64,000 nucleotides of DNA. It comes from Escherichia coli (GTDB lineage: Bacteria; Pseudomonadota; Gammaproteobacteria; Enterobacterales; Enterobacteriaceae). Where the stretch lies: assembly GCA_009729775.1 (NCBI GenBank), contig GCA_009729775.1_4081.1. One strand, 5' to 3'. The number at the start of each line of letters is the position of its first letter. Position 1 is the stretch's first letter. A program made the position numbers and the translations under genes. The notes below the pieces were generated by a model. It made no database searches. It was not told the origin of the DNA and saw only the letters and a list, made by a program, of their open reading frames with translations. Shown in pieces: positions 5,690-46,991 of this stretch.

Positions 5690-5722
5690 ATAAAAAAAGA
5701 GAACTCCATATGAAGTTCTCTA
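5690..5722 (-). terminator. intrinsic terminator-like hairpin (AGAGAACT/AGTTCTCT) plus U7, overlapping the transcription start of the promoter at 5723-5751
   Basis: stem-loop 5697-5722, A7 on plus 5690-5696; downstream of stop of 5753..8542. Confidence 0.5.
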
Positions 5723-5751
5723 ATTATACATAATTACTTTTTCTATGTCAA
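5723..5751 (-). promoter_or_regulatory. sigma70-type promoter, consensus TTGACA-17-TATAAT, for 5259..5678
   Basis: minus-strand TTGACA (plus 5746-5751) and TATAAT (plus 5723-5728) with 17-nt spacer. Confidence 0.55.
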
Positions 5752-5752
5752 G

Positions 5753-8542
5753 TTATAAATCACGGAAACGATTTGGTGTGTTTAAACGATACATTGAGTA
5801 CAATCCCAATCCACGCATAATCTCACCTGCCCAGAAACCAAAAAACATACCATTATCAGTACCTTCTCTGACTGCTGGACTCCATGAACCATTCATTGGA
5901 GAACCTGGACTTACAATAACATAGTTCTTTTGAAGTTCGAGAACTAAGTTATCAGCGAGTGTTGTTAGACCTTCTATTTTACATCCAGCCAATCCAGCAG
6001 CACAAGCCCCAGCTAACCACAACCCACACATATGACCTGTAAAGTCCCAATCTGGACCTTCAACTGTGCCATCTTTATTGAAGATTGTTGGTGAACGACC
6101 ATCATTATCTTTTTGAAATTGAATTAAAAAGTGAATCCAATTCTCACAAAATTCAACAAGATCTGCTGGTGGTTCAATTCCTCTCTCTGCGAGTTCTTGC
6201 CATGCTCTGGCAGCCCCAAAGAACGCACGTGGTTCATACCCACTCCATGCTTGATCACCCCAATGTAGCATAGTAAATGTATCTGGTTCACCATATTTTA
6301 AGTTATCCCAGCGGTTCCAAACATATGCTTGTGCACATGGACCAACAGTACCGAATTGTTGAGTAAACCATGTTTGAGAATCTTTCATAAAGCTTAACAT
6401 GTTGCCTAAACGTGTGTTATCAACTGGTTGGTCTTTAAAACAATATATCACTGGATACTGATAACCAGGATAAGGCAAACCACGCCAACCTGAATACTGA
6501 TTCGCATACGGGTCAGTGATGTTAGAAAATGGTATTGTTCCTGGAGTGTAATGCAATGAGTTTAACAAATAATCTTTGATTACACAATCCCCTAACTGTG
6601 CAGTATAAGGTGATTCACCTGCAATTGTTATTGAAAATGTCATGGTATAGTCATCACCGTCAGCATCCGTATATAATTCTGGAATGTCATTAATACAATA
6701 CCAATCAATTATTGCAGCAACGCCATCTACTGGGGTTGTATCAGGTAAAATAGTAATATCTTCTAGCTCACTATAAACTGGTGCATCTGGTCTTGGGTCA
6801 GAACTTGGATGATTTGGCTGATACCCAGATAAACGTAATGTATCAGAACTTAGTGTGATAGTAGTCCATTCCCCGTGTGTTGCAGGAATCATCCACCACC
6901 ATCTCCAACCATTATCATCTATAATTCGTATATTATAATCATCTTCATATGAACGATATGTGAAAGATTTAACTTCAGACTTATTTGTTGCTAATAACCA
7001 AAATCCAATAACAGCACCATCATCTTCACCACAAACCAACTGATTAATTGTATCGCGTCTTGTGATTAATATATCAGTACTATATAACATTTCGGACGTA
7101 GCTGCACCATAAGGAACAACAATTCTACTATCAGCAATTATATAAGGGGAACCATCTGCTTTCTTTTCTCTAACAAATGCACTTAACGGTGTTAATGAAT
7201 GTGTGATATTTTGGTCTTTACTTTCTGGTAAGCCGCAACGATAACGAACAACATCATGGTCATTTTTTGTTTTTGACAATTCCAGTACTGGTTTAAATGA
7301 TAACGGTTTACCATCATCGCACACGCCACCATAGTCAACTAGCAATTTTGAATCAGCATTTACCCTGAACCAAATAGCTTGTTGCTCCATAGTACTCTGT
7401 GCACTTTGGTCTTGTCTGATAGTAATGTATCCTAACGAATTTCTACCAAACTTAGCAATAGCATCACTTGGATAAAAATATTCATAGGAAATACCATCAG
7501 TGAATGGTGTGGTTACAATTGTACTTTGTCTGAAAAATTTATCTCTGGAGTCGATATCACCATAAGCATAGCATGTGAGTAGTGAACATTTCCAACCCAA
7601 ATAATGTTTTCTTTCTTTAGTTATTTTATATAACAAATACGAAGCATCACTAAACCATAATTCTGCATCTGATGCGTTATCAGCAAATTCTAAATCAATT
7701 GGAACATGAAGTGGGCGGTTGTGTTGCATTTCATTTCGTTGAATTATTACACCACCATATTCTACTGGTTGACGATTAGCAAAATTTAATTTATATACAC
7801 CATTAATTGTTGTATTCTTTAATTGAACAGTTCCTTTTTCAGATTCGTCAAAACCTTCTGCTAAAATATTACCATCCCAGTCGATTTTTCTACCCATGAA
7901 ATCAATAATCCAGTCAACATCATATTGTTCACCTGGTGTATCCCAATCAACACTACCATCTGGTAATAAAGCTTTTACTGACGCATTTATTTGGTTCCAT
8001 GCTAAAGCACCTTTGAATGCAAATGTCACTTTATCCAAGAACTGACCATAATATGGTGCACCATGTGGTATTTTGCATTGACCATTAGTAAATGTAAATT
8101 CTACTCCCTTGAAACCACCATGTGTGGGCCAGCCATCATCAGCTAAAGGCCAGTTAGCCAATATAGGTTCTTTTGCATTAACTATCCAGTTACATTGTAG
8201 CGGTGTAGGTGGATCTGGTAATTCACGTCCAGCATAAAAGTACTGATGATATGCGTCCCAATACCACTTTGCCTTATCTAAAAACAATGGATCATTTGTA
8301 GCCAGATATGCATAAATGTATCCTAAAATTAATAGACTTTGACCTTCTGTTGTCCCGTCACCGTTTGGTTGACCTTCCATTGCAGAATAGTTAATAAAAT
8401 GGCGGTTGTTCGCCAAAACACCCTGATTGTTCACCACATAATGCTGTACTGTTGGATCTATAGTATCACCAGTATTTCTTTCAATAAATTTGTGATGCCC
8501 ATAAAGAAGTTGTACAATATTATCAATATTATTGTTTAACAT
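5753..8542 (-). CDS. large protein (929 aa), possibly tail-associated with glycosidase-like C-terminal region
   Basis: long ORF ending the tail-fiber-containing transcription unit; Trp/Gly-rich, C-terminal segment reminiscent of alpha/alpha-toroid glycoside hydrolases (weak, by eye). Confidence 0.65.
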   Translation of the reverse strand: MLNNNIDNIVQLLYGHHKFIERNTGDTIDPTVQHYVVNNQGVLANNRHFINYSAMEGQPNGDGTTEGQSLLILGYIYAYLATNDPLFLDKAKWYWDAYHQYFYAGRELPDPPTPLQCNWIVNAKEPILANWPLADDGWPTHGGFKGVEFTFTNGQCKIPHGAPYYGQFLDKVTFAFKGALAWNQINASVKALLPDGSVDWDTPGEQYDVDWIIDFMGRKIDWDGNILAEGFDESEKGTVQLKNTTINGVYKLNFANRQPVEYGGVIIQRNEMQHNRPLHVPIDLEFADNASDAELWFSDASYLLYKITKERKHYLGWKCSLLTCYAYGDIDSRDKFFRQSTIVTTPFTDGISYEYFYPSDAIAKFGRNSLGYITIRQDQSAQSTMEQQAIWFRVNADSKLLVDYGGVCDDGKPLSFKPVLELSKTKNDHDVVRYRCGLPESKDQNITHSLTPLSAFVREKKADGSPYIIADSRIVVPYGAATSEMLYSTDILITRRDTINQLVCGEDDGAVIGFWLLATNKSEVKSFTYRSYEDDYNIRIIDDNGWRWWWMIPATHGEWTTITLSSDTLRLSGYQPNHPSSDPRPDAPVYSELEDITILPDTTPVDGVAAIIDWYCINDIPELYTDADGDDYTMTFSITIAGESPYTAQLGDCVIKDYLLNSLHYTPGTIPFSNITDPYANQYSGWRGLPYPGYQYPVIYCFKDQPVDNTRLGNMLSFMKDSQTWFTQQFGTVGPCAQAYVWNRWDNLKYGEPDTFTMLHWGDQAWSGYEPRAFFGAARAWQELAERGIEPPADLVEFCENWIHFLIQFQKDNDGRSPTIFNKDGTVEGPDWDFTGHMCGLWLAGACAAGLAGCKIEGLTTLADNLVLELQKNYVIVSPGSPMNGSWSPAVREGTDNGMFFGFWAGEIMRGLGLYSMYRLNTPNRFRDL

Positions 8543-8543
8543 A

Positions 8544-9080
8544 TCATACTCCTGCTCTAATTAATGCACCGTACCATGTAACTCCTTTATCATATGTTTC
8601 TAATGAAATAATATCTTTTTCACCAATTTCATAAGAAAGAACAACTGGTCTATTATATGACCATTTAACATTTGAACCCCAATTAACGAGGTTAGACCCT
8701 GTTTGCTGAGTTAATAGGATAGTAATTGAATAAACTTCAGTAGGAGCAGAACCAATAGCAATAGTGGTATTTCTATCAGATAAATTAATATTAAAAACTG
8801 TATTACCTGATAGGGGATTAATTAAAATATTATTAGAACTCAATACATTATATAACTTGTTACTAGCACTATCATACAATGTTACCCATTCTGTTTCATG
8901 ATTCTCATTAGTAGCTTTAGCTTTTATTTTTACATTATTTTCGGAAGAAGTCATTCCAGTCCAGCCAGAAATAATAAAAGAACTGTTTTTATTTGTTCCA
9001 AATGATGCAATTACCGAATCACTAAGAGAACTATCTTCACCGTCAATAGATCCGAGTACTGACAATGTTAAAACCATCAT
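8544..9080 (-). CDS. hypothetical protein (178 aa), Ser/Thr/Asn-rich, possibly structural
   Basis: ORF track; composition. Confidence 0.55.
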   Translation of the reverse strand: MMVLTLSVLGSIDGEDSSLSDSVIASFGTNKNSSFIISGWTGMTSSENNVKIKAKATNENHETEWVTLYDSASNKLYNVLSSNNILINPLSGNTVFNINLSDRNTTIAIGSAPTEVYSITILLTQQTGSNLVNWGSNVKWSYNRPVVLSYEIGEKDIISLETYDKGVTWYGALIRAGV

Positions 9081-9243
9081 TTTTAATGTCTACGCCAGTT
9101 GCACCTGAAAAATTATTTTGAAATTTAATAACTCCGGTAGTGTGGATATCTGTGAAAATTTGTTGTGCCATACTTAATCCTTGCGTTAATTTATATTGAG
9201 TATTTATCGAGTATAATGGCATTTTTAGTACCATTATACTCAT
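9043..9243 (-). CDS. hypothetical small protein (66 aa); may be N-terminal part of 8544..9080 via frameshift
   Basis: ORF track; overlaps downstream ORF by 38 nt in another frame. Confidence 0.3.
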   Translation of the reverse strand: MSIMVLKMPLYSINTQYKLTQGLSMAQQIFTDIHTTGVIKFQNNFSGATGVDIKNDGFNIVSTRIY

Positions 9244-9248
9244 GTATA

Positions 9249-10481
9249 TTACTTATACCATTGCATTTCTCTGATATCAATGATAATTTTTGATGCTAAT
9301 TTAATGTTTGGTTTTTTGGGAAGTACTGATTTCTTATATAGAACATCACGAATGTATTGTACTTTATCATCGAAATATTCTAATACTTCTTCATACTTCC
9401 ACTTACCATTACGAATATCCATCAACATTTGTGCATCAGGTCGTTTAACTTGAATAATTCCACTCTGTAATGCTTCTTCTGCACTATTCAAAAGTCTAAT
9501 TGTGTGCATAGCATGTTTGCAATCGAATCCGTGTTGTGATTCTAAAATAGCACGTTTGGCATTACGATTTTCTTTCCATTTATGATAACTTTTCCTATTC
9601 TCACTATTTTCCTGATATTCTTTTTCGTTAAATTTTACAATTAGTTCTGGTTTGGTTTTCAACTCTTCAGTACTACGCTCTTTAGAAAAATAACGCAATG
9701 AACCATCACCATTGATAGTACTTTCATTCGGATTTTTAATAATCGCAAAAATGTTTTCTCCGTAATGAATTAGTTCATAGCCATTATTAAAATTCAATAA
9801 ATTGAAATCACGATCTAGAATTTTATCAGTAGTGTAGTTATGCACTAATCTTACAAAATGATATTGCTTTAATGGATTTTTCGAAACTAACTGCAATGAC
9901 GTATCACGCATATATTTTTCAAAATCAATCTTTTTAGCATTAAATGGATGTAAGTTCGATGTATCTAAACGTTCAACAAGATATTGTGGAAATGAATCAT
10001 ACATCCACGCAAGAACCTCATCGACTGGGTGTTCTTCTAAAATCTCATTTAATCGTTTTTCAGCAATACGCTCTTTATCCATCCAACCGTGATGATTTGT
10101 CATACGCTTAATCTGATTATATGCATATCCAGTGTATGAAAATGCAATCTTGGAACTAAGAAGTTTTTGGTTAAATGAACGAAGATAGTCATAAATTTCA
10201 GTACTTTCAACAATGTGTTCAGGTTCAACCCAAAGTGATTCAAGAATATTAGGGTTAGCTTCAGTGTATAATTTTAAATACTGATTCAACTCATAGAATT
10301 TAGTATCTTCTTCGCTTTTATCAGCTACCTCTTTGACCTTATAGAAGGGTGTAAGAATAAATTCTTTATTAGCAAGAAAAATACCACGATAATCAGTATC
10401 ACTTTCAGGTGTACTGGTTCCGTAGGCTTGTGACCCAGCCAAGTGTTTCACTATTGTTTGTTCAATATATTGGTTATTCAT
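9249..10481 (-). CDS. Pol-beta-superfamily nucleotidyltransferase (410 aa)
   Basis: N-terminal motif AGSQAYGTSTPESDTDYRGIF = GS-x9-SDxD nucleotidyltransferase signature; rest unassigned. Confidence 0.6.
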   Translation of the reverse strand: MNNQYIEQTIVKHLAGSQAYGTSTPESDTDYRGIFLANKEFILTPFYKVKEVADKSEEDTKFYELNQYLKLYTEANPNILESLWVEPEHIVESTEIYDYLRSFNQKLLSSKIAFSYTGYAYNQIKRMTNHHGWMDKERIAEKRLNEILEEHPVDEVLAWMYDSFPQYLVERLDTSNLHPFNAKKIDFEKYMRDTSLQLVSKNPLKQYHFVRLVHNYTTDKILDRDFNLLNFNNGYELIHYGENIFAIIKNPNESTINGDGSLRYFSKERSTEELKTKPELIVKFNEKEYQENSENRKSYHKWKENRNAKRAILESQHGFDCKHAMHTIRLLNSAEEALQSGIIQVKRPDAQMLMDIRNGKWKYEEVLEYFDDKVQYIRDVLYKKSVLPKKPNIKLASKIIIDIREMQWYK

Positions 10482-10879
10482 AGATAAATTGTTAACTCCT
10501 TTAAGAAACCATTATAATAACGATTAAAGTCATGTTCTAATGTTTTATAATCATCAAAACTAAAACCTAAATTGATAATTGTATCTTCTTGAAAGAAAGT
10601 TTCTTCATTCATACATTCAATAGGTTCGTAATTAATTCCACCTTTGAAAACTTTTGTAAAAAACATTCCATCATTATTAATTTCAACATACATAAAATTA
10701 TTTTCTGGATCACGAGGACAGACGATATTCAGTGAACTATTTCCACTTGTATTGTACTCATAAGAAATTATATCAAAAGAATCAATACCATAACACTTAG
10801 ATTTTTCTTTATCGCCAAATACTTTTCTATCTGTACTCATATTGCGTATAGTGCTATAGATATCATCAACTGTAGTCAT
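10478..10879 (-). CDS. hypothetical protein (133 aa)
   Basis: ORF track; ATGA overlap with neighbours. Confidence 0.55.
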   Translation of the reverse strand: MTTVDDIYSTIRNMSTDRKVFGDKEKSKCYGIDSFDIISYEYNTSGNSSLNIVCPRDPENNFMYVEINNDGMFFTKVFKGGINYEPIECMNEETFFQEDTIINLGFSFDDYKTLEHDFNRYYNGFLKELTIYL

Positions 10880-10881
10880 AG

Positions 10882-11391
10882 TTAACCACCATACTTTGAC
10901 TTGTATGTTTCAAGTGATAAAGATATACGATTTTGCTTTTTAATTCTTTCATCAATATCCTTTGAATTCTTCACACTTCGGTATACGTCAGCTAATAAAT
11001 TATAATCTTCTTTATTTGAGCTATGCTGTGTCCAACCTATGTCTGTTTTAATACGAACACTTGCTTTATTTGACGAGTAAAAGAAACTGAAACCATTTGA
11101 CCCATCAAAAATATCAAAAGTATCTACCCAATCACCATAAGGAAAACTCATTGGGACTGACTCGTGGTCGATTGTGATATCCGATAAATTTTTTGAACAG
11201 TACTTCGCAAAGTGATAAACGATTGGATCACATTTTGATAATTCGTATTTGTATTCAATGATAGTTTTTCTATTAGCATCATTGATAGCATATTCTTTTA
11301 TCAATGGACTTTTTTTGATGATAAGAGTCCATAGAAACGATTCTAATCCGGTTTCATCAACTTTTTGTTTCTTTTTGAAAAATGAAATCAT
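10882..11391 (-). CDS. hypothetical protein, tandem paralog 3 of 3 (169 aa)
   Basis: shares KSPLIK...DANRK.IIEYKYELSK core with the two upstream ORFs. Confidence 0.6.
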   Translation of the reverse strand: MISFFKKKQKVDETGLESFLWTLIIKKSPLIKEYAINDANRKTIIEYKYELSKCDPIVYHFAKYCSKNLSDITIDHESVPMSFPYGDWVDTFDIFDGSNGFSFFYSSNKASVRIKTDIGWTQHSSNKEDYNLLADVYRSVKNSKDIDERIKKQNRISLSLETYKSKYGG

Positions 11392-11909
11392 TTATATAAA
11401 CCCTTAATTTTCTGTCTATTATGTATATCATTTTGCTGGATTTTCAATTTAGTAAGGTTGTTTCTTACACCTTCAACTCCACGCATTATTTGTAACATAA
11501 TTAGTGATTCGTCATATGTTAGTACATTGCTATTATTATCGATATATACTTTCACTCCACTTTCAAGATAATCATTTTCTTTGGAGTTAAAGTTTCTAAT
11601 AACAAACTTAACGCCATTTGATGTATCACTGAAAACATATCGTTCCGCACCGTAGAATGTTTTTCCACGAAATAAACCGCCGTCTTCCCACTTCCAACGA
11701 CTAGATTCATAATCATTAACGTAATCAATGATTAAAGAAAGTAAAGGATGTTTGCTCAATTTATATTTTGCATCTAACAGGATACGTCTATCATTATCTG
11801 TGGTAATAATATCCTTTAGTGAGTAGCTTTTAGATATAATTTTAAAGATAATTTCATGCCAAATTAAAGTACTGTTTTGTTTTCCAACTGATCCAAAAAA
11901 CATATCCAT
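11388..11909 (-). CDS. hypothetical protein, tandem paralog 2 of 3 (173 aa)
   Basis: shares KSYSLK...DNDRR.LLDAKYKLSK core. Confidence 0.6.
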   Translation of the reverse strand: MDMFFGSVGKQNSTLIWHEIIFKIISKSYSLKDIITTDNDRRILLDAKYKLSKHPLLSLIIDYVNDYESSRWKWEDGGLFRGKTFYGAERYVFSDTSNGVKFVIRNFNSKENDYLESGVKVYIDNNSNVLTYDESLIMLQIMRGVEGVRNNLTKLKIQQNDIHNRQKIKGLYK

Positions 11910-11915
11910 TCCTCA

Positions 11916-12482
11916 TTAGTATAAATCAGTAATGTCTTTGTATGCATTAATCTGTTTTTGTTGTAATGAAAGTTCATTGAGTTTAGTTACCATTTTATCT
12001 ACACCAACACGTGTATAGAAAATAATAAATGAATCTAAATTGCCTAGAGTAATTCTTGAACTGAAATTTGAAAGTTTTCTTGCATAAACATAAATTTCTT
12101 CTTCACTTGGTAAACGTTTCTCAATCGGCCAGCTTTCCACACCATTCGGCTCATAATCGATTTCAAATTCAACTCCCATCACTGTGTCTTGAATGCGATC
12201 CGTATATGAACCACCGTAAAAATACTCTCTTGGTTTGGATCTCCAACGAGGACTAAATGGGTCAGTTGCGTATTCTTTTACAAATTTGTAAAAGGACATT
12301 TTACTGAGCATATACTTCATCTCAATTAGTGCTTTGCGGTCATCATCAGTTTTAAACTCTGCTTTTAGCGATGGACTTTTACACAGTAACTTAACTAAAT
12401 TGTTGTACATCTTTAATGTACGTTGTTCTTTCATTTCTTTGATTTTGTGACGTTTTGGTGGTGGTAATAAAGATTTGACCAT
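11916..12482 (-). CDS. hypothetical protein, tandem paralog 1 of 3 (188 aa)
   Basis: shares KSPSLK...DDDRKALIEMKYMLSK core; AGGAGG RBS; promoter upstream. Confidence 0.6.
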   Translation of the reverse strand: MVKSLLPPPKRHKIKEMKEQRTLKMYNNLVKLLCKSPSLKAEFKTDDDRKALIEMKYMLSKMSFYKFVKEYATDPFSPRWRSKPREYFYGGSYTDRIQDTVMGVEFEIDYEPNGVESWPIEKRLPSEEEIYVYARKLSNFSSRITLGNLDSFIIFYTRVGVDKMVTKLNELSLQQKQINAYKDITDLY

Positions 12483-12504
12483 AATTTCCTCCTATTTTTA
12501 TTCA

Positions 12505-12532
12505 ATTATACACATAAAAGAAAAGCCCGTCA
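12505..12532 (-). promoter_or_regulatory. sigma70-type promoter TTGACG-16-TATAAT; -35 lies inside the preceding terminator stem
   Basis: minus-strand TTGACG (plus 12527-12532) and TATAAT (plus 12505-12510). Confidence 0.5.
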
Positions 12533-12542
12533 ATAGACGAGC
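12515..12542 (-). terminator. terminator-like hairpin downstream of tail-fiber-like gene
   Basis: 7-bp stem (one mismatch) 12525-12531/12536-12542 followed on minus by U-rich run. Confidence 0.45.
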
Positions 12543-12549
12543 TTTAAAT

Positions 12550-15279
12550 TTATTTCCAACGTGTGCCTGGACCTGATGGTACACCAGTACTGGCAGGTAT
12601 CGCTGAACCACGTTTCGTTGTACTTGGACGATATGTCAAAAAACGAGTTACTTTTTCTGTATCAATTGAATTTATTCCTGAAGTTCCAGTAACTATCTTA
12701 CCAATGTAAGTGCTAGTTAAAGATTCATCAATTGTTTCAGTACTAATAACATATGACGCTTTCTTAGTATTCCTGTTCATTTGTATATACAAATAGAACG
12801 TAGTATTAGCTGGATTACTTTTTACAGTACTTAAATCAACACTTTGTATAGGTAGTCTGTCGAAAATTCCACCTAAAAACACCGGAACTTCACGTGTAAA
12901 GTACACTGAGAATCCTTGTGCAACGTCTTGTGATACTACCACAATCTTTTCTTTAACGCTACCATTTCCGCTAATTAAACCATCCATTTCAGCAGATGTT
13001 GTACCAAAAACGCTGAATACAGATTTGGTTTGATAGTCAGAATCTTGAAAATTGTAATATCCAAAACCAACACCAGGAATAACACCATGTTGATATGCTG
13101 CACCAAGTTGGATGTAACTAGATGATAAAAAACGATTTGATGTTATGACACCATCTACTGTTTTAGCTATCATCATCTTAAATTGTGCATTACCTGGTTG
13201 TGAAAATTGATGTACGGCATCAACACCAATGTAACCAAATCCTGAATATTTTGCAACTGTTAGACCAGTACAACGTTTCATATATGCTTCAGTAATAATT
13301 CCTGTAACAGAACTCAGTGTTTCATATCTAGTACTCACCAATGTAGCTGAAGTTATGTTAGTTCCAGATAATACAACATCAACTTCGGCATAGATTGCAT
13401 AACCTTGGTTATTGTTAAGATTATATGCTGAAACTACTGCGATGGATTTAGAAAAAGTATTATCAGGTACATAATATAATACAATTTGTCCAGATAGTGT
13501 ACCAACAATGCCAGAGTTTCCTATATTAGCAAAAATATCTTGTTTTAATGATTCTAATACCGTTGGTTCTATTGTATATGTTTCATCAAATTCTAAAGTA
13601 TCTGGATTTAATAATCCACCACTTGTTTTATATACACCTTCAATGAATGATGTTCCATAGCATCTAACACTACCATCGGTATCAACAAGAGAAATCATAG
13701 CAGTGTATGTAAAATCATCGCCTATTTGTTTACGATTAGATTGTGGTGCAAAACCATTTAATGTAGTATTATGTTGAACTGAGTTATATTGATATGTTGG
13801 TTGTGAACCTATTTCAGAAAAAACAGTATTATTATAATTATATGTTACATCATCATACGTACCAGAACATGCTAATAATATTTTTCTATTATCGATGAAA
13901 CGTACACCTAAAAGGTTTGCACCAACAGCACTACCAAAAACTGGTAAAACGTTTGCATTTATAACATTACTTGCGGATCTAGTACTGGCAACCCATGAAT
14001 CAAACGGTGTACCACTAACCTTATATCGTTGTAGACCATAAAATTCAGTTGAACTCCATCTAAATTTAGATGCAAATACCAAACCATCTTTAGTTTGACA
14101 TAAACCACCTGCGTTTCCTAATACGCCAGCAGCAGTTGTCCCGGTGAAGTTGACCATATCAATTTCAAAAGGGTTAGAAACTTGAAATCCATTATTATAT
14201 GAAACAGTCGCAGGTGCACGAGCACTACCATCTAGGGACATAGATTTTGAGTTTATATTATAAACAAAACTTATGCCAGTACCATAAACTGTTGAAATAT
14301 ACAAAGGTGTAACCATTCGATGTGTTGGATATAAAGTTACACGTATTTTTGATAAATCAGGACTAACGTTGGCTTGTATATTAAAGTCTGTATAATCTGA
14401 AAATTCTACACGTGATACGGGTGATGTAACTTCGAATAATGAATCCGAGCTAGTACCAACACTATATAATTTATCGAACACTCTTATGTTATTAGATGCA
14501 GAATAACTTGTGTTTCGAACAGTTTGTCCTGATAACCCAGTAACTTTTGTTAATGATGCCATTGAGCTTGCTTTCACATCACTTAGCTCTACTGTGTAAA
14601 TGGAAAGTGCTAATCCCAAATTAGAAACACTCTTATCTTTACACCAAATATAAACCTTTGTCCCAACAATATGTGTATATATTGGCATATCATTACCAAA
14701 AGAAGTACTTGGTACTTTAGCATGAATATGTGATATTTCGTTAAATGTACCATTGGTTATAGTGAAAATATAATTATCTTCAGTACTTAAACACCCAAGC
14801 ATTTCATAACCATTAGAGCCAATAAAGTACTTAATATTTTCAGTACTACTCATAATTGAAGGTTTATACATTGAATTGGTTGAAATAACACTTTCTTGTG
14901 AAATCATAGTTATATTTCTGATTTCTCGTATAAATGAATAATAAAAACCTTTAGTACTACCATTGGTTCCGCTACGCAGAACAACGGCGGTTCCATCATC
15001 TTCAATAATTGTTGGCTGAACTACTTGGTCACTTGACATAGGTGTAGCACCTTCATACGACCCACTTACGTTTAATGGTAAGTAATCCATTTCTCCTATA
15101 CGTGATATAGGCAACATATCTAAAATACTTTGAACTTCAGAACGCTTATATATTGGATATTGAACAATTCCAGTATTGGCATTCGGTGAGGTTCCATTAA
15201 AAGTACGCATAGCGTACCTTTGTCCAATTGCCAAGTTCCCAAGGATCTCGGCACTTCCTATAATTCGTTTTGATGACAT
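12550..15279 (-). CDS. tail-fiber-like protein, paralog B (~909 aa)
   Basis: start moved to ATG 15277-15279 (AAGGA RBS); N-terminal module LPIS.IGEMDYLP..VSG...GTAVVLRSGTNGS and C-terminal module shared with 15895..18591. Confidence 0.65.
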   Translation of the reverse strand: MSSKRIIGSAEILGNLAIGQRYAMRTFNGTSPNANTGIVQYPIYKRSEVQSILDMLPISRIGEMDYLPLNVSGSYEGATPMSSDQVVQPTIIEDDGTAVVLRSGTNGSTKGFYYSFIREIRNITMISQESVISTNSMYKPSIMSSTENIKYFIGSNGYEMLGCLSTEDNYIFTITNGTFNEISHIHAKVPSTSFGNDMPIYTHIVGTKVYIWCKDKSVSNLGLALSIYTVELSDVKASSMASLTKVTGLSGQTVRNTSYSASNNIRVFDKLYSVGTSSDSLFEVTSPVSRVEFSDYTDFNIQANVSPDLSKIRVTLYPTHRMVTPLYISTVYGTGISFVYNINSKSMSLDGSARAPATVSYNNGFQVSNPFEIDMVNFTGTTAAGVLGNAGGLCQTKDGLVFASKFRWSSTEFYGLQRYKVSGTPFDSWVASTRSASNVINANVLPVFGSAVGANLLGVRFIDNRKILLACSGTYDDVTYNYNNTVFSEIGSQPTYQYNSVQHNTTLNGFAPQSNRKQIGDDFTYTAMISLVDTDGSVRCYGTSFIEGVYKTSGGLLNPDTLEFDETYTIEPTVLESLKQDIFANIGNSGIVGTLSGQIVLYYVPDNTFSKSIAVVSAYNLNNNQGYAIYAEVDVVLSGTNITSATLVSTRYETLSSVTGIITEAYMKRCTGLTVAKYSGFGYIGVDAVHQFSQPGNAQFKMMIAKTVDGVITSNRFLSSSYIQLGAAYQHGVIPGVGFGYYNFQDSDYQTKSVFSVFGTTSAEMDGLISGNGSVKEKIVVVSQDVAQGFSVYFTREVPVFLGGIFDRLPIQSVDLSTVKSNPANTTFYLYIQMNRNTKKASYVISTETIDESLTSTYIGKIVTGTSGINSIDTEKVTRFLTYRPSTTKRGSAIPASTGVPSGPGTRWK

Positions 15280-15295
15280 CTTTCTTTTCCTTAAT

Positions 15296-15883
15296 TTACC
15301 AACCAATTGTACCAGTTTCTGATGGTTTTCCAGTACTGACTGGGAATGAAGAACCTTTTTGTGTAACACTAGGTCTATATGTACTAAATCTGGATACTTT
15401 ATTAATGTTTATATTTGTAATACCACTTGTACCAACGGTCAGTGTTCCAATAAACATTATAATTTCAGATTCTTGTATTTGTGTTGGTGATATTTTATAA
15501 ATTGGTTCACCGAGAACTAACGTTGCATATACGTATTGTGTTTGTGTTCCAGATGAAACTGTTGAAGCAAAAATAGAAACTGCTGGAAATTTATAAAGAT
15601 AACCACCAATAAATGATGGTATCTGTCTATTAAATGTAAGACTATATCCAGATGAAGTGATATTTAGACTTGCATCATCATACAATTCACCGTATTGTGT
15701 GAGGGGTAATCCATTTACAATAAAATTAACTTCATCTTTAGTAATAGAGGGGAATGTACATTCCCCATTTGAATTTGTTGGGTAATAAGTCATATTATTA
15801 CCTAATACACCAAGTCCAGTACTTTTACCTTGTACTGTAACTTGTTGCATTGCCTTAAGGTCTGCTCTTATTTTATATGCCAT
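15296..15883 (-). CDS. small protein (195 aa) sharing the tail-fiber C-terminal module
   Basis: C-terminus ...RFSTYRPSVTQKGSSFPVSTGKPSETGTIGW matches C-termini of both large paralogs. Confidence 0.6.
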   Translation of the reverse strand: MAYKIRADLKAMQQVTVQGKSTGLGVLGNNMTYYPTNSNGECTFPSITKDEVNFIVNGLPLTQYGELYDDASLNITSSGYSLTFNRQIPSFIGGYLYKFPAVSIFASTVSSGTQTQYVYATLVLGEPIYKISPTQIQESEIIMFIGTLTVGTSGITNININKVSRFSTYRPSVTQKGSSFPVSTGKPSETGTIGW

Positions 15884-24721: not shown

Positions 24722-25098
24722 TTAGTAAAACACGAATTATTACTGATAAGTTCATCAAGTACGTTTTGTACTTCGATAGAATTAATATCAACTTTGTAAT
24801 AATTATAGTTTTTAACTCTAAAATGTTCTTTTGATATATCAACTTTAAATTCAATAATATCAAGATTACCAATAAAATCAGACTTATCAGTTCTTAAATC
24901 CAAAATACCTAATTCCGGTTTTTGTGGTTTACATAAAATCAAACCAAATTTATTTTCTTCAAATGCCTGATTAAACATATCATAATAATCACTAATAACA
25001 AATCTAATATTATCAGTGCTTAACTTTCCTGATTTTCCTTTTTTATAAACAGAAACAATGTTTAGTTCAAAGGTTTTACCAAAGCGTGTGATTTTCAT
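24718..25098 (-). CDS. hypothetical protein (126 aa)
   Basis: ORF track. Confidence 0.55.
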   Translation of the reverse strand: MKITRFGKTFELNIVSVYKKGKSGKLSTDNIRFVISDYYDMFNQAFEENKFGLILCKPQKPELGILDLRTDKSDFIGNLDIIEFKVDISKEHFRVKNYNYYKVDINSIEVQNVLDELISNNSCFTK

Positions 25099-26066
25099 TT
25101 TGGGCTATAACCACTTTTAATTTTAGAAATTACTTTCTTCTCGAAGAACTTACGTGCTTCTTCAATAGTTTCGAATTCTTCACCATCTGTAGTACTAGTT
25201 TTACCAATAGAACCGTACTCAATAATTACTTCACACACTGGAGCATTCAATTCAATATTATAGAATTTGTTTGAAGAATCGTGAACATATTCCAAATGTA
25301 CATTATCAGGAATGTTCTGTACATAATCATAGTTCTTGAAGATAATATCAATCATATTTTCTTCGCCGCGATCAGGAAATATTTCAGTATTATTGAGTAC
25401 TAAACGCTGTGCAGCACGGAACATATCAAAATATTGTTCGCCTTTTTTCAGTTCTTTTGTATCAGAACAGAAATGACCATAATATTCTACATAATCATTC
25501 CAAGGATAAATTCCTTCATCAGCAGTTTCAGACACGTAAGTTTCATCTTGTGGAACTTTAAAACCACGAGTTTTTGGATGAGAAATTAAGCACAGTGAAA
25601 TATTATGACCGATATCTGAATCATCAGTAATACTACCACCAACCATATGAACAACATTTTTAATACTTTCAAAATCTACATCTTCAATTTCATGATACAT
25701 TAAATGTTCTTCAATATTACTTACTAGTAATGAATTACCATTTCCGGCATCGAATTCAAAAATGAAAAGTTCTACACAATCTTCTTCTTTCATTTCAATA
25801 GTATCACTGAGTTTAATATACTCATTTTTTAATTGTTCAATATTTTCATGAGAACCAAAACTATAACGTGAACTGATATAACTACTACCGTCCAACCATC
25901 CCATATCCCAAGGTTCTTCTGACATGTATTCTGAGCTATAGAAATCAGTCAAATCATCTCTCTGAGTACAAACCGTAAGAGAACGAACATTACTAAGACC
26001 TTGAACTTCAAGATTCAGCACTGTAGTATTGCCAATTTTTTGTTCAGAAATAATTTTAGTTTTCAT
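25095..26066 (-). CDS. protein with C-terminal WGR-like domain (323 aa)
   Basis: C-terminus NKFYNIELNAPVCEVIIEYGSIGKTSTTDGEEFETIEEARKFFEKKVISKIKSGY resembles the WGR motif pattern; N-terminal 260 aa unassigned. Confidence 0.55.
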   Translation of the reverse strand: MKTKIISEQKIGNTTVLNLEVQGLSNVRSLTVCTQRDDLTDFYSSEYMSEEPWDMGWLDGSSYISSRYSFGSHENIEQLKNEYIKLSDTIEMKEEDCVELFIFEFDAGNGNSLLVSNIEEHLMYHEIEDVDFESIKNVVHMVGGSITDDSDIGHNISLCLISHPKTRGFKVPQDETYVSETADEGIYPWNDYVEYYGHFCSDTKELKKGEQYFDMFRAAQRLVLNNTEIFPDRGEENMIDIIFKNYDYVQNIPDNVHLEYVHDSSNKFYNIELNAPVCEVIIEYGSIGKTSTTDGEEFETIEEARKFFEKKVISKIKSGYSPK

Positions 26067-28331: not shown

Positions 28332-29771
28332 TTACATATTTTCTTCAGCAAATTCAGCCAGTGGTGAACGAACAACACCTTCTAGTTCGATGACACGACA
28401 ACCTGCCCAGTCTTTAAACTTCTCAGTTACATATGTCAAACCACTGTTAACAGGACTAATAAACTTACTGTCAATCTGACTCAAGTTACCCATAATTACT
28501 ACTTTACAGTTTAACCCTGCTCGTGTCAAGATGGTTTTTGCTTGTGCAGGTGTAATGTTTTGGAATTCATCAACTACTAGAATAGTGTTGGTGAATGAAC
28601 GTCCACGTACAAAGTTTAGTGCTTTAAATTGAATAACATTACGTTTCATAATCTCTTCAATACTACCTTGTGGATTGGCATCATCTTTATGAAGAAACTC
28701 TAACGCATCAATCGCGGCTCCACAGAATGGAATCACTTTTTCTGCTTCTGAACCTGGCAAGAAACCAATATCTTCAAACTGTGAGTCTTGAGTTTTAGAG
28801 AAGATGATTCGGTCGTATTTACGTTTTTCCAGTACTAATTCTAATGCAGTAGCAATTGTAATTAGTGTTTTACCAGTACCAGCAGAACCTAGCAGTACTG
28901 TTAGATGTACATCAGGATCGAGAATACTGTTGATGGCGAGTGCTTGTTGGATATTCTTTGCTTTAATATCCCATACTTTAGCACGTAAAGCCACTGATTG
29001 TCCAATGTCTTGGAATACCAAAATATCTTCTGGTGTTAGTGTTCCATCATCTTCCTCAATTGCTGATTGTCCTTCGTACACAAATAATACGTCAGCATCA
29101 TCATATAGATAATCACCGATGCATAGATTTTGTGGAAGCAGATGTTCAATCAAGCTTTTAGAAATGTAATGATACAAACGACGACCAACTTGTTCGGATT
29201 GAATATTAGTATTGGTTAAGTTGCTGTATACTTCCCAAAAATTGATTTCCAGATGGTGTTGACCAATGTGAATCAAATCACTATCACCAATAACAATATC
29301 ATGGCGATAATCTTGTACCTCGACACCATAACTTAGTGCTTTGATACGCATGTTGATATCACGAGTTACCAGTACTGATTCTGTTGCTAAAGCTACCAGA
29401 ATGATTTTATCATCAGGTACAGTACTTTTGAGAAGGGTTTGAACTTTCTCTTCTGTACCTTTAGTACGAATTAGTGCCTCAGCTTCTTCGTTTGTAATAA
29501 CAAACAATTTGCTATCAGGATTCATATTGGTATGAACATCAGCAATATTAACACCAGTACTACTAATCTCGTCATGTGATGCATCTGCAATAATTGCTTC
29601 AATGTTACGAATAGCAACACGAGCATCGCGTGAAACATCTACATTACGACTCTTAATCGAATCTAATTCTTCCAGTACTGTAAATGGTAGAATGATTGCA
29701 GCACCATCAAAAGCAATAGATGCATTAGGGTCAGATAGTAGTACGTTTGTGTCAATTGTATATTTTTTCAT
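28332..29771 (-). CDS. phoH: PhoH2-type protein: N-terminal PIN domain fused to PhoH-like ATPase (479 aa)
   Basis: PIN signature (YTIDTNVLL, ILPFTVLEELD); Walker A VLLGSAGTGKT and PhoH-like C-terminal half. Confidence 0.85.
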   Translation of the reverse strand: MKKYTIDTNVLLSDPNASIAFDGAAIILPFTVLEELDSIKSRNVDVSRDARVAIRNIEAIIADASHDEISSTGVNIADVHTNMNPDSKLFVITNEEAEALIRTKGTEEKVQTLLKSTVPDDKIILVALATESVLVTRDINMRIKALSYGVEVQDYRHDIVIGDSDLIHIGQHHLEINFWEVYSNLTNTNIQSEQVGRRLYHYISKSLIEHLLPQNLCIGDYLYDDADVLFVYEGQSAIEEDDGTLTPEDILVFQDIGQSVALRAKVWDIKAKNIQQALAINSILDPDVHLTVLLGSAGTGKTLITIATALELVLEKRKYDRIIFSKTQDSQFEDIGFLPGSEAEKVIPFCGAAIDALEFLHKDDANPQGSIEEIMKRNVIQFKALNFVRGRSFTNTILVVDEFQNITPAQAKTILTRAGLNCKVVIMGNLSQIDSKFISPVNSGLTYVTEKFKDWAGCRVIELEGVVRSPLAEFAEENM

Positions 29772-38442: not shown

Positions 38443-39246
38443 TTAAATTTCAAATACAAATTTAGGATTGTAATCAAAATTCTCACAAGCTCCACTGTAT
38501 GATTCATAGCCTCGTGGATTACAAATGATACGTGTCTTACCAATGTGGTAGTCAAAGCTACTATGAACATGACCATGAATCCAAACATCAGCACCCAAAT
38601 CTTCAATGTACTGATCCATATCGGAACAGTAACAACCATTCAGTGAATCATTTTTATATTTTGGTGAAACACTTTGATAACTTGGTGCGTGATGGGTAAC
38701 CACGATGACCTTGAAATCATTATCATGCATAAAGCGAACTGTGTCAATAGAATTTTTGATAAATTGTTTATCTTTGTGATGCATAAACTCAGTATCATCT
38801 GGTGTCAGTTTCTTACGCCAAGGCTCTGATGTTGTTCCATGACGGATATGTTTGTAATCGTTCATCTTCAGACGAGCATCAAACTTCGTTAAAGAATTAC
38901 CTTTATCGAAGTCTGTCCACAGAGTACTACCAACAAGCAGTACTCCATCCAGCCATACAAATTTGTTTTGCAAAAAGATGAAATTTGGAATCTCATCTTG
39001 CATATCAGACAGTACTTTATGCGTTTTGTGGATATTGGAACCATAGTATTCGTGATTACCGGGAACCAGTACTACATTCTTAAACTGCTTACATAGTGAT
39101 TCGATGCCAGTACGGTAACGACTGCGTTTAACTTCATCGAAGTCCCCAGCAATAATCAGTACTACATCACTGTAATCACCGCTATGGAGGTAATCAGTTC
39201 CACCGTGTACGTCAGATGTTACAACAAATTTCATAATTACCCCCAA
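38443..39246 (-). CDS. calcineurin-like metallophosphoesterase (267 aa)
   Basis: TSDVHGG, GDF, GNHEYY, VTHHAP, GHVH motifs. Confidence 0.7.
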   Translation of the reverse strand: MGVIMKFVVTSDVHGGTDYLHSGDYSDVVLIIAGDFDEVKRSRYRTGIESLCKQFKNVVLVPGNHEYYGSNIHKTHKVLSDMQDEIPNFIFLQNKFVWLDGVLLVGSTLWTDFDKGNSLTKFDARLKMNDYKHIRHGTTSEPWRKKLTPDDTEFMHHKDKQFIKNSIDTVRFMHDNDFKVIVVTHHAPSYQSVSPKYKNDSLNGCYCSDMDQYIEDLGADVWIHGHVHSSFDYHIGKTRIICNPRGYESYSGACENFDYNPKFVFEI

Positions 39247-39253: not shown

Positions 39254-40672
39254 TTAACCTAATGCGTCAATAATACTGTTTGAGAATACTTCAACTGCAC
39301 TCTCACGAATTTCTAAGATACGAGTATAATCATCACAAGTGTTTTTGTCAAATCTAAATTCAATAAACACTGGTAAGAACAGTGATGGCTCACCAGTACG
39401 CTTGTCGAATACAATGTCATTACACTCAACTGTAACCACTTTACCAATAAGTTCTTGCATTCTTTCCCAAATGGTTTTAAATGTCCATTCAGCATCTTTC
39501 TCTTTGATACCAGTACCCACATTAACTTTCAATGAACCACAAGCACTTTCCAGTTGTAAAGAACCTAGGCTTCCTTTACGTTTACCTTCACCTTCATTGA
39601 AACCAACAATACGTAAGTCCAGTTGCATTTTCAATTTCATTTTCAACTGCTTCGGAGAAGTGTGAGATTTCCAGATGCCATCTTCACATTTCAGTACTGA
39701 ACCCTCTTCACCTTCGTTCATTAGTTCACTATTGTACTCAAATGCTTCTTTGATGTTTAGAACTTTACGGAATCCAACCATACGAACAAAATCACTATTG
39801 AGTTCGTTAATTGCATCTACTAAGATCTCGCGACGTTCTTTACGTTTTACATCCCATACGCCTTCACAAAATGCATCATATGGAACAACATCCCATAGAA
39901 CGAATACAGTACGCATTGCTTCATTCTGACTGATGCTATCTTTTCCAGCTTTCTGAATTATACCGTTGCCAGTAGTGCGTGGGAGAATTGTTTCCCCATC
40001 ATTGTCCAGTACTACACCTTCACCCATAAAGACTACACCACTACTAAAACGTTCATCTTTACTTTGGATGATGTGAGCAAGACCTGCCATCTCACCATCT
40101 CGACAACCCAGGAAGTCGTATAGTTTACCATTACGGGATGTAGAAGTTAATGAACCATTAATGACAACGTGGTTCAAGTACTGACCATCCATTTTCACTT
40201 CTGATATAGCATAACCATAATCTTTGAAGTTAATGTTCTTTGCAGTCTTTTTGTCAATCAAAGAACAACGCATATATGGTTCGTCTTTGATGAATCCTTT
40301 ACCAAACACATCATTGCAGTTTTTCTCCTGAATACCACAATCAAGGTTCTTCGTGAGCATTTTACGAAGAACTTCCTGGTCATCTTCTGATACAGAACCC
40401 AGTACTGAAGCAATGAAATCACGCCCAGCATTTCCTGTCACGCCACGCTTGTAAATGCATTCTAGCTTATCAATTGCTTCATCTAACGTCATATGTTGAT
40501 ATACGTCATCAGCGTCAGGGAGCTTCTTATAGCCACTTACGATAGAAGGGTCTAGAGTATATTTCAGTACTTTTTGTAAAGTTACATTATCTTTATTTTG
40601 TTCAAGAATAGCTTTTTTGCCTAGTGTACTGCTAGTATTTTTAATGCTTTCAAGAATTGCTAAAATGCTCAT
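39254..40672 (-). CDS. ATP-dependent DNA ligase (472 aa)
   Basis: nucleotidyltransferase motif I EVKMDG (lysine adenylation site); size and architecture like T4 gp30; AAGGA RBS. Confidence 0.85.
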   Translation of the reverse strand: MSILAILESIKNTSSTLGKKAILEQNKDNVTLQKVLKYTLDPSIVSGYKKLPDADDVYQHMTLDEAIDKLECIYKRGVTGNAGRDFIASVLGSVSEDDQEVLRKMLTKNLDCGIQEKNCNDVFGKGFIKDEPYMRCSLIDKKTAKNINFKDYGYAISEVKMDGQYLNHVVINGSLTSTSRNGKLYDFLGCRDGEMAGLAHIIQSKDERFSSGVVFMGEGVVLDNDGETILPRTTGNGIIQKAGKDSISQNEAMRTVFVLWDVVPYDAFCEGVWDVKRKERREILVDAINELNSDFVRMVGFRKVLNIKEAFEYNSELMNEGEEGSVLKCEDGIWKSHTSPKQLKMKLKMQLDLRIVGFNEGEGKRKGSLGSLQLESACGSLKVNVGTGIKEKDAEWTFKTIWERMQELIGKVVTVECNDIVFDKRTGEPSLFLPVFIEFRFDKNTCDDYTRILEIRESAVEVFSNSIIDALG

Positions 40673-42805: not shown

Positions 42806-43564
42806 TTACCTTTTGAAACGATTGAATGAGTACTCATCTTTTTCTTTACGTAAGTATCTCATTCCACCACTTTGTGGAGTAGCGAGAGTTAAGTCACCCG
42901 TCAAGAACTGACTATCAATCCATATGCGATTTCCGTAAATGAGTGGGTCTGTAACTGCTGTATGTCCACTAAAGACACAATGCACTCCATCTAACTTAGG
43001 TGCATAATATGTATTATTAGTTCTACAATAATCGAATGTTTTTCTATCCCACAAGCACTTATCAATTATATCAGCACTAAGTGATTTTGTCCCATTGACA
43101 AATCGTTCCCATGTTGTATATTCCAACGGAACTCCAGCATGAACTAACCCAATCTTCAATCCTCGGTGATTGATTTGGATAATCATAGGGAGATCCTTTA
43201 AGTACTGACGAAAGAATTGAATGCCTGTTCCCCCAACTTCATCAAGGAATTTATCACCACCATTACTTATCCAACAGTGATACCAATCTCGAAGTGTTTC
43301 CGAATCAACGCACATCATCTCATGATTACCAGCAATCATGTAACGATTTTCTCCGAACAAAAATTCAAAAAGGAGCTTTGAATTTTGTTCTCCACGGTCG
43401 ATAATATCACCTACACTGAAAACATAATCATTGTGTGTAATACCAAATTCTTTCACTGTAGCATCCCATAGTTTACCATTACCATGCAAATCACCTACAA
43501 TGTATAAATCTTTATCATCAGGTACGGTTACTTCTAAGAAGTGTTTCATTATTACTCCAACCAT
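42806..43564 (-). CDS. Ser/Thr protein phosphatase, lambda-PPase-like metallophosphatase (252 aa)
   Basis: GDLHGN, GDIIDRG, GNHE motifs; true start probably the internal MKHF. Confidence 0.75.
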   Translation of the reverse strand: MVGVIMKHFLEVTVPDDKDLYIVGDLHGNGKLWDATVKEFGITHNDYVFSVGDIIDRGEQNSKLLFEFLFGENRYMIAGNHEMMCVDSETLRDWYHCWISNGGDKFLDEVGGTGIQFFRQYLKDLPMIIQINHRGLKIGLVHAGVPLEYTTWERFVNGTKSLSADIIDKCLWDRKTFDYCRTNNTYYAPKLDGVHCVFSGHTAVTDPLIYGNRIWIDSQFLTGDLTLATPQSGGMRYLRKEKDEYSFNRFKR

Positions 43565-46746: not shown

Positions 46747-46991
46747 TATAATAAACCTCTCACATAAAACATTGATGAAAATAGATAATCATTAGTACTT
46801 GTGTTTAGTTGTTTAGAAAAGTTATATTTTTTATCTTTATTTTCGTATAAAGACAATCTATAGAACATTTCTATATTTTCTAAGTATTCTTTTTGTAACA
46901 ACATCTGTGTTTTTACATTCATTATAATATACCTTAAAAGAAAAAGGGACCAACATATGATCCCTTTTGTATTAGAAATTTCCTTCTGCAA
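46746..46991 (-). CDS. hypothetical small protein (start uncertain; track start is TTG inside pseT 3' end)
   Basis: ORF track; probable true start at internal ATG (MNVKTQ...). Confidence 0.35.
   Translation of the reverse strand: MQKEISNTKGIICWSLFLLRYIIMNVKTQMLLQKEYLENIEMFYRLSLYENKDKKYNFSKQLNTSTNDYLFSSMFYVRGLL

Follow-up and report, generated by a model that had tools for sequence, protein, structure and literature searches.

A probable early gene block ending in an RlaP-family nucleotidyltransferase in jumbo phages of the RaK2/121Q/GAP32 type

In the window, by which we mean the whole 64,000-nucleotide (nt) stretch of contig GCA_009729775.1_4081.1 from an assembly filed under Escherichia coli, five open reading frames (ORFs) are closely packed on the minus strand next to a set of tail-fiber genes. 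Three of them encode related small proteins, the fourth encodes an acidic protein of 133 amino acids (aa), and the fifth a 410-aa nucleotidyltransferase of the Pol-beta type. The locus raises the question of what such a block does, and whether the adjacent fiber genes have any part in it. We propose that the block is probably a conserved early unit of the RaK2/121Q/GAP32-type jumbo phages ending in an RNA-repair nucleotidyltransferase of the RlaP family, the counterpart of NrdC.11 in the T-even phages.

The five ORFs lie exactly where the initial annotation had placed them, on the strand that carries nearly all genes of the window. Paralog 1 (11916-12482, minus strand; 188 aa, isoelectric point (pI) 9.3) matches phrog_18641 with E = 1e-79. 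It is followed on the same strand by paralog 2 (11388-11909; 173 aa, or 171 aa from the start at 11903 used in the public annotation), by paralog 3 (10882-11391; 169 aa), by the acidic protein (10478-10879; pI 4.4, charge -11), which matches phrog_22376 of unknown function, and by the nucleotidyltransferase (9249-10481). Two of the junctions are 4-nt ATGA overlaps (11388-11391, where the start of paralog 3 overlaps the preceding stop, and 10478-10481), and the remaining gaps measure 2-6 nt. In phage 121Q the five genes are gp502, gp503, gp504, gp505 and gp506. The block with its surroundings (3.6 kb) has an identity of 98.6% with the Escherichia phages vB_EcoM_G17 and Sharanji and of 98.2% with 121Q; this region matches 36 phage records, all from Escherichia/Salmonella jumbo phages of ~350 kb in the genus Asteriusvirus. 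The organization of the block is kept in Asteriusvirus, in Alcyoneusvirus, in Munch-like and GAP32-type phages and in metagenomic relatives.

The 410-aa nucleotidyltransferase and its likely role in RNA repair

The 410-aa protein almost certainly belongs to the RlaP family. It matches Pfam PF10127 (RlaP) with E = 5.4e-16 and 59.5 bits against a gathering cut-off of 23, and phrog_388 with E = 5e-76. PF10127 is carried by the best 120 of 823 database homologs, save for an N-terminally shortened fragment, P0087. The motif G16-S17-(QAYGTSTPE)-S27-D28-T29-D30, which has the form GS-x9-SDxD, had led the initial annotation to call the protein a canonical nucleotidyltransferase, and an alignment of 43 diverse homologs bears this out. 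All of them have G16, S17, D28 and D30 as well as D59, the third acidic residue, and the catalytic Asp triad is intact; the loss of the third acid, raised earlier as a reason to doubt the assignment, is not found. A second invariant set lies in the C-terminal part of the same 43 sequences (W302, R306, N307, R310, E314, D320, K322, H326, R329, R347 and D349), with K303, N305, H323 and P348 nearly invariant. In the AlphaFold2 (AF2) model, with a predicted local distance difference test (pLDDT) score of 92 and a predicted template modeling (pTM) score of 0.82, an N-terminal alpha/beta nucleotidyltransferase domain is followed by a long helix, by a middle region of partly beta structure (~150-285) and by a helical C-terminal domain (286-409). 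The last of these resembles HEPN-like bundles. The model may correspond to the two-domain fold of the PfRlaP crystal structure, in which the final helix packs against the N-terminal domain. By tblastn, RlaP relatives are found in 1,667 phage records, T-even nrdC.11 genes included. The 410-aa jumbo-phage forms have ~60 more residues than the ~350-aa relatives, and the full-length form is kept in RaK2/K64-1 (73% identity), in Erwinia phage Hallingskeid (64%) and in Munch, GAP32, Serratia BF and XaC1 (56-59%). GenBank already lists the enzyme as a nucleotidyltransferase, and it is of an ordinary, known kind.

The closest known counterpart in a well-studied phage is NrdC.11. Alignment of profiles by hhalign to T6 NrdC.11 gave a probability of 97.8% and E = 1.2e-12; its 274 columns take in both domains, with residues 9-377 of the query against residues 3-298 of NrdC.11 and D59 opposite an Asp. 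The surroundings are also alike. Both genes lie in an early or predicted early region between an nrdD/nrdG side and a tk side, and the order nrdD/nrdG, RlaP, a gene similar to rI.-1, spanins and tk parallels the T4 region. Both have tandem small paralogous genes upstream and a small gene abutting the start. The proteins differ in that their identity is ~28%, that BLAST alignment is limited to the N-terminal 140 residues, and that NrdC.11 has 336 aa. In T6 (locus L016, 1464-4008) the genes directly ahead of nrdC.11 encode a tandem pair of MobD.1 paralogs, 180 and 173 aa long, and a protein of 153 aa that is probably a membrane protein. These upstream products (MobD.1, MobD.1-like and RB32ORF096c) show no homology to the three paralogs or to the 133-aa protein. 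A kinship of the small block proteins with MobD.1 was considered and rejected (hmmsearch E > 0.05, hhalign probability 0.1%), and the two layouts are analogous rather than homologous.

RlaP has been characterized biochemically only recently. In a preprint of December 2025 (PMC12776372), RlaP from P. fluorescens and from P. aeruginosa put 1-2 nucleoside monophosphates onto an RNA 3'-OH, favoring mimics of cleaved tRNA and Mn2+ and taking neither DNA nor protein as acceptor. A tRNA missing one anticodon-loop nucleotide regained aminoacylation with RlaP acting ahead of ligation, and the bacterial enzyme was active alone in vitro. The same work assigns T4 NrdC.11 to PF10127 and, in its discussion, considers RlaP products suited to 5'-phosphate ligases. 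That RlaP is common in jumbo phages is already known; a 2021 survey (PMC7824862) named it their most prevalent repair nucleotidyltransferase and found that it tracks RNA ligases. RaK2 has been reported to have Rnl1 and PseT plus a CCA-adding enzyme.

Because of these reports on RlaP products and ligases, ligase and end-healing partners were sought in the window. Both are encoded there on the minus strand. A T4-type RNA ligase 1 (RnlA, 49001-50143) is recognized by the Pfam models RNA_lig_T4_1 and T4_Rnl1_C and matches RaK2 RnlA with E = 6e-163, and a PseT-type polynucleotide kinase/3'-phosphatase (46972-47904) is recognized by HAD_PNKP (2e-43) and AAA_33 and matches RaK2 PseT with E = 9e-133. 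A few small ORFs set the two genes apart, in an arrangement like that of RaK2 (gp470 and gp464). The association of RlaP with RNA-repair genes is thus present at the level of the genome. The phage protein shares with the RlaP family the Pfam match, the GS...DxD motif with the third Asp and, as far as the AF2 model shows, the order of a nucleotidyltransferase domain and a C-terminal helical domain; the Rnl1 of the phage, a 5'-phosphate RNA ligase, and its kinase/phosphatase would be able to use the 3'-OH products of RlaP. It differs from the family in a partly beta middle region of ~135 residues that lies outside the Pfam model, and in the location of its gene, ~39 kb from the ligase in a predicted early operon behind four lineage-specific small proteins. 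Compared with the tRNA-repair pathway of T4, in which PseT and RnlA act against the PrrC anticodon nuclease, both enzyme types are present in the window and strongly similar. The classical pathway has no nucleotidyltransferase, however, and RlaP would add a nucleotide-restoring step to it. A role against nucleotide-excising (RloC-type) nucleases is a published proposal for RlaP.

Considering these similarities, we propose the following sequence of events. From a host-sigma70 promoter situated within the terminator hairpin of a late gene, two to four basic paralogs, the acidic 133-aa protein and then RlaP would be expressed. tRNAs are cut by anticodon nucleases of the host, some of which, of the RloC type, take out a nucleotide as well. 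RlaP would restore one or two nucleotides at the 3'-OH end of the cut tRNA, phage PseT would heal the tRNA ends and Rnl1 would reseal them. The small proteins, as a working reading, would be non-structural early proteins co-regulated with RlaP, and not demonstrably part of its machinery.

Several observations weigh against this proposal. The RlaP gene lies ~37-40 kb from those for Rnl1 and PseT, and not in one operon with them as in bacteria. There is no tRNA gene in the window, and nothing RNA-related was found within +/-10 kb of RlaP. HMMER aligns only positions 24-144 of the 249 in the Pfam RlaP model, that is, its N-terminal half, and the extra middle region of ~135 residues in this clade, including an Asteriusvirus-type insert of ~60 residues, may affect the choice of substrate. 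What is known of the biochemistry stems from a single preprint and two enzymes of Pseudomonas, and the in vivo role is a proposal even there. Early timing is read from the promoter consensus and its conservation, and co-transcription is the sole tie of the small proteins to RNA repair. Taking these points together with the family assignment and the partner enzymes, we regard an in vivo role of the 410-aa protein in RNA repair as likely.

The alternative that the enzyme serves signaling or counter-defense (as a CD-NTase-like, Hailong-HalB-like or AMPylating MNT-like protein), or that it is a DNA-repair polymerase, is improbable. The extra middle domain of the phage clade would leave room for it, and the Sharanji paper lists the protein under DNA repair; that annotation is based on the name alone. 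Against it stand the RlaP match far over threshold, the full-length homology to NrdC.11, and the acceptor preference of the characterized enzymes, which excludes DNA and protein. A nucleotide-signal synthase, one of the options in the initial annotation, is disfavored further by the searches: PADLOC returned no match for the protein at E <= 0.1, no effector-like neighbor was seen, and CD-NTase structures were reached by Foldseek only at E > 1 (CdnC and CdnD, E = 1.0-1.4, probability <= 0.06). The PolyA_pol head with body and tail that would indicate a CCA-adding enzyme or poly(A) polymerase is not present in the 410-aa protein. Nor does the protein resemble an MNT-HEPN pair, in which an MNT of ~100-140 aa is joined by a separate HEPN RNase with Rx4-6H, being a single chain of 410 aa of which MNT structures match the core alone (E >= 0.09); no HEPN-family Pfam match was found in the block, in a search not aimed at an Rx4-6H motif in the C-terminal domain. 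To the minimal Pol-beta enzymes in general (KNTase/ANT(4'), LinB, MNT-HEPN and Hailong HalB) the similarity is at the level of the fold only, with 8-15% identity, and the block has no antibiotic, toxin or defense context and no PADLOC or Pfam match to those families. No solved RlaP structure was among the matches in two PDB libraries. Of the options listed at the outset, RNA repair of the RlaP kind is therefore the one that the Pfam and NrdC.11 matches favor, and the statement that function could not be identified from sequence holds for the four small proteins but no longer for the 410-aa protein.

The locus offers a well-defined case of RlaP in cultivable coliphages (121Q, G17, PBECO4 and phAPEC6), where the genome also encodes Rnl1 and PseT, and repair of nucleotide-excised tRNA becomes directly testable against PrrC/RloC-type defenses. 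It is noted that a second RNA-end-repair enzyme, the tRNA-His guanylyltransferase Thg1, occurs in the neighborhood of some genera. In GAP32 (locus L010, 3613-6845) its gene is interleaved with the four paralog copies, and in XaC1 (locus L003, 2635-3369) it lies ~4 kb upstream of RlaP.

The promoter and terminator ahead of the block

A sigma70-type promoter, TTGACG-17-TATAAT, is predicted at 12505-12533 on the minus strand, in a 67-nt gap and 23 nt upstream of the first ATG of the block. It agrees with the consensus at 11 of 12 positions and is the top-scoring sigma70-like site of the region. A lone consensus match is weak evidence, as 23 sigma70-like sites were observed in the region where 28 were expected. 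Stronger evidence comes from comparison. The promoter is conserved by position in all eight relatives (JNE01, L007, L008, Muenster, Munch, GAP32, Turkey3 and UE-S1), with a spacing of 16-17 nt between TTGAC(A/G) and the -10 box, and in Muenster and GAP32 the site stands immediately ahead of the first paralog. Because of this conservation we take the promoter to be real and of the host-sigma70 (early) type, in agreement with the initial annotation, which had predicted a sigma70-like promoter driving the block. A strong AGGAGG ribosome-binding site for paralog 1 follows at 12488-12493, 3' of the promoter. Over the whole window, the coding (minus) strand has 15 sigma70-like sites with at least 11 of 12 matches and the plus strand has 2; some nine of the 15 fall in the 3' parts of upstream ORFs and not in gaps.

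The promoter overlaps the intrinsic terminator of the upstream 909/939-aa late gene. This terminator (hairpin 12545-12522, minus strand) has a 10-bp stem, a TATT loop and a U-tract, and the -35 box of the promoter sits within the loop and the 3' arm of the hairpin. The folding energy is -17 kcal/mol (z = -5.6). The stem is kept in seven relatives, among them JNE01, Turkey3, UE-S1, Munch and two metagenomic ones, where 95.7% of the cells are paired, and four of the ten pairs show compensatory double changes; the covariation score was reached by none of 500 shuffles. The annotation of G17 likewise places a terminator at this site. The conserved promoter and terminator support the view of the block as a promoter-driven unit, and a promoter embedded in a terminator is a modestly new element of the locus. 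The upstream gene occupies 12550-15369 on the minus strand; its GTG start gives 939 aa, and the publicly annotated ATG start at 15279 gives 909 aa.

A second promoter/terminator element marks the far end of the unit. Past RlaP, the nearest strong terminator (hairpin 5721-5698) comes right after a sigma70 promoter with 12 of 12 consensus matches, TTGACA-17-TATAAT at 5751-5723, which would serve the next unit (element 5698-5751, minus strand). The 5' arm of its 10-bp hairpin begins ~2 nt past the -10 box. By this design the promoter's own transcripts would not carry the full hairpin and incoming transcripts would terminate, unlike at the overlap of 12505-12545.

Early, non-structural expression of the block is very probable on these grounds. 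Proteomic data are consistent with it. In the virion proteome of phAPEC6 (PMC7247149) neither gp316c (RlaP) nor gp318c-321c was detected, which is negative evidence, though consistent over all five proteins.

The A/B paralogs, the acidic protein and their relation to RlaP

That the three adjacent genes are paralogs is borne out, although the relationship is distant, with identities of 33% and 27% between copies. Within the window phmmer matches the 188-aa to the 173-aa protein with E = 2e-12 and these two to the 169-aa copy with E = 3.5e-4 and 9e-3; no fourth copy was found in the window by this search. The paralogs cross-match phrog_18641 and phrog_7868 and are basic (pI 8.7-9.3). A HMMER scan of 1.84 billion representatives returned only 35 related clusters, nearly all of 160-197 aa. 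Copies in the loci of the relatives were counted by a search with a 37-sequence profile. There are three in the window, in JNE01 and in Munch, two in Muenster and in the metagenomic contigs L007 and L008, and four in GAP32, interleaved with Thg1 and an NrdA.1-like gene; none is detectable in XaC1. In the RaK2-like supergroup they are located invariably between the terminator of large structural genes and RlaP.

The paralogs resemble the copies at the same position in other genera more than the siblings in their own genome. Paralog 3 of the window, for example, scores 110 bits to the third copy of JNE01 and 67 to the second of Muenster, against 29 to its best own-genome sibling. From this closeness by position we distinguish an A-type, in the first position or positions (paralogs 1 and 2 of the window), and a B-type, in the last position (paralog 3). 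One A and one B make up the minimal conserved set. The A and B groups are older than the splits between genera, so that the paralogs are not recent duplicates, and the duplication giving the two A copies of the window is older than the split from JNE01.

Selection was estimated from the ratio of nonsynonymous to synonymous substitution rates (dN/dS) by the pairwise Nei-Gojobori method between the window and UE-S1 and Turkey3; the values are gene-wide averages, and site-specific positive selection is beyond the method. Comparisons with JNE01, Muenster and Munch were left out, as synonymous sites are saturated. The ratio is 0.11-0.25 for the paralogs, 0.02-0.06 for RlaP, 0.02-0.04 for the 133-aa protein and 0.13-0.20 for neighboring structural genes. 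Identity to JNE01 is 29-38% for the paralogs versus 75% for RlaP. The paralogs are thus fast-evolving, yet under purifying selection given their dN/dS. The earlier suggestion that the triplet reflects diversification under selection does not agree with these gene-wide values or with the old, position-specific orthologous groups.

The structure of the paralogs gives few clues. The AF2 model of paralog 2 reached pLDDT 63, the remaining four models 44-47, and this weak model has three N-terminal helices, which carry the conserved motif KS..LK...D..R....KY.LSK, then a beta region and, at the C-terminus, a long helix. The conserved A and B pair may form a heteromer through these long C-terminal helices. 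Foldseek found nothing in the PDB below E = 1.3 for the paralog model, and the paralog profiles gave only chance-level matches (E >= 0.005) in Pfam and PDB sequences. NCBIfam yielded no match and PADLOC a single chance-level one, of DUF2290 to the 188-aa paralog (E = 0.016). Eleven stretches of a 2,278-aa protein, P0152, aligned with the beta region in the center of the paralog profile (E = 5e-10); the match was judged spurious, probably a compositional artifact, as the protein is repetitive and has only non-significant and unrelated Pfam matches.

The acidic 133-aa protein belongs to a family of 29 clusters, all within the RaK2-like jumbo supergroup. Its gene is upstream of RlaP in every examined relative but GAP32 and is weakly recognizable in XaC1. 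Its profile gave only chance-level matches (E >= 0.005) to PDB sequences and Pfam. A relationship to the paralogs was also considered and dismissed (hhalign probability 2.5%). In Turkey3 (locus L014) the paralogs differ from those of the window with a synonymous rate (dS) of 0.14-0.38, in contrast to the 133-aa gene and RlaP, for which dS exceeds 2. This contrast indicates a recombination breakpoint between the paralogs and the 133-aa/RlaP pair, near position 10880 of the window. In JNE01 (locus L002, 6556-7005), L007 (8922-9365), L008 (10193-10648) and Muenster (locus L009, 7541-8005) an extra gene of ~150 aa follows the 133-aa gene and precedes RlaP; it is absent from the window and its close relatives.

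It might be asked whether the small proteins are parts of a multi-subunit RlaP machine, in which A and B select the damaged RNA and the 133-aa protein serves RlaP as chaperone, regulator or nucleic-acid-mimicking inhibitor. The gene order of paralogs, 133-aa gene and RlaP is retained in at least four genera, and the stop of the 133-aa gene overlaps the RlaP start (ATGA) both in the window and in Munch. Moreover, in the Turkey3 mosaic the 133-aa gene has a history in common with RlaP and different from that of the paralogs, selection on the 133-aa protein equals that on RlaP in strength, the charges of the acidic protein and the paralogs are complementary, and Thg1 is interleaved among the paralogs in GAP32. 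However, in XaC1 RlaP (56% identity) occurs without detectable paralogs, the 133-aa gene is missing from GAP32, and the extra ~150-aa gene splits the 133-aa gene from RlaP in JNE01, L007, L008 and Muenster. Both small-protein families are confined to the jumbo supergroup, and since RlaP relatives occur in more than 1,600 phage records, most phages with RlaP must lack them. The genes ahead of nrdC.11 in T6 are unrelated, bacterial RlaP works alone in vitro, and close packing of unrelated early genes is normal among T4-like phages. We therefore regard such a machine as unlikely. The more specific version, that the A/B paralogs and the 133-aa protein serve RlaP specifically, as subunits or as regulators, in a multi-component, substrate-targeting RNA 3'-end repair system of the RaK2-like jumbo phages, is speculative and rather doubtful; if true, these cofactors would tune which damaged tRNAs get rebuilt.

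As early proteins co-regulated with RlaP, which is the reading that we prefer, the A/B paralogs and the 133-aa protein are conserved, apparently non-structural and uncharacterized, and they are candidates for screens of host takeover and counter-defense. The A/B pair and the acidic protein are modestly new elements of the locus.

The tail-fiber neighborhood and other genes of the window

Downstream of RlaP in the window lies a variable tail-fiber module on the minus strand (5753-9171) with matches to tail PHROGs. It comprises a 42-aa ORF (9043-9171), which overlaps the start of a 178-aa gene (8544-9080), and a 929-aa gene (5753-8542). A T4-late-promoter-like box, TATAAATT, is predicted at 9188-9195 on the minus strand, ahead of the 42-aa ORF and the fiber genes. 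The sole exact copy of TATAAATA on that strand is 35 nt upstream of a gene for an 898-aa virion protein, and an ATAAATA late motif has been reported for CBB and GAP32 (PMC5259590). The proteome of phAPEC6 virions (PMC7247149) includes gp314c (the 929-aa fiber protein), gp315c (the 42-aa ORF) and gp323c (the 898-aa protein). With 4.66 kDa and 69% coverage in virions, the product of the 42-aa ORF is a genuine structural protein of very small size.

The module is not a fixed partner of the block, and even Asteriusviruses that are otherwise close differ by it as an indel. In UE-S1 (locus L015, 3900-4040) the whole 42/178/929-aa module is gone, a remnant of the 929-aa gene, its last ~8 codons, is found ~40 nt past the RlaP stop, and the same promoter/terminator element follows at ~60-90 nt (hairpin start to end) past that stop. 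The leftover codons indicate a deletion in UE-S1, rather than an insertion in the lineage of the window. The module is also absent from Turkey3, L007, L008, Muenster, Munch and GAP32. As the module varies and the block persists, the adjacency to the fiber genes is incidental. The ancestral unit thus consists of promoter, paralogs, 133-aa gene, RlaP and terminator, with the fiber module as a variable insert before the terminator. The initial description of the block as lying next to tail-fiber genes is thus correct for the window and is not conserved among the relatives, and a functional tie between the two is not supported, since the block persists without the module and no protein of the block was detected in phAPEC6 virions.

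The large genes upstream are not fixed partners either. Muenster has unrelated tail fibers there, with no match to the 939-aa protein, and in XaC1 a 939-like gene is downstream of RlaP and a 195-like gene is also present. The 939-, 195- and 898-aa neighbors are mutually related large proteins, of which the 898-aa protein is the phAPEC6 virion protein. The XaC1 homolog of the 939-aa protein is annotated as a structural protein.

These observations bear on the possibility that the paralogs assist, as chaperones or adaptors, in the assembly of the large fiber-like proteins upstream (898, 195 and 939 aa) or downstream (178 and 929 aa). The paralogs are always 3' of large structural or tail-fiber genes, read-through late in infection is possible as terminators are leaky, and the absence from virions would fit with chaperones, which are typically not found there. 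On the other hand, the conserved terminator and sigma70 promoter part the paralogs from the upstream late genes, and the paralogs remain where the upstream fibers are unrelated (Muenster) or the downstream module is deleted or absent. XaC1 has 939-like and 195-like genes without the paralogs, and the paralog copy number (2-4) does not follow the number of adjacent fiber genes. No match to any tail-assembly family was obtained for the three paralogs in Pfam, PHROGs or the PDB, so that the identification with known tail-fiber assembly chaperones, considered at the outset, finds no support. We regard a chaperone function as highly improbable and retain the reading of the paralogs as early proteins expressed with RlaP.

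A scan of the whole window with Rfam found no known RNA family. Further genes on the minus strand encode a WGR-domain protein (25095-26066), a PIN-PhoH fusion (28332-29771), two calcineurin-like phosphoesterases (38443-39246 and 39254-40672) and an ATP-dependent DNA ligase (42806-43564). The phAPEC6 counterpart of the PIN-PhoH fusion, a PhoH-like protein, has been detected in virions.

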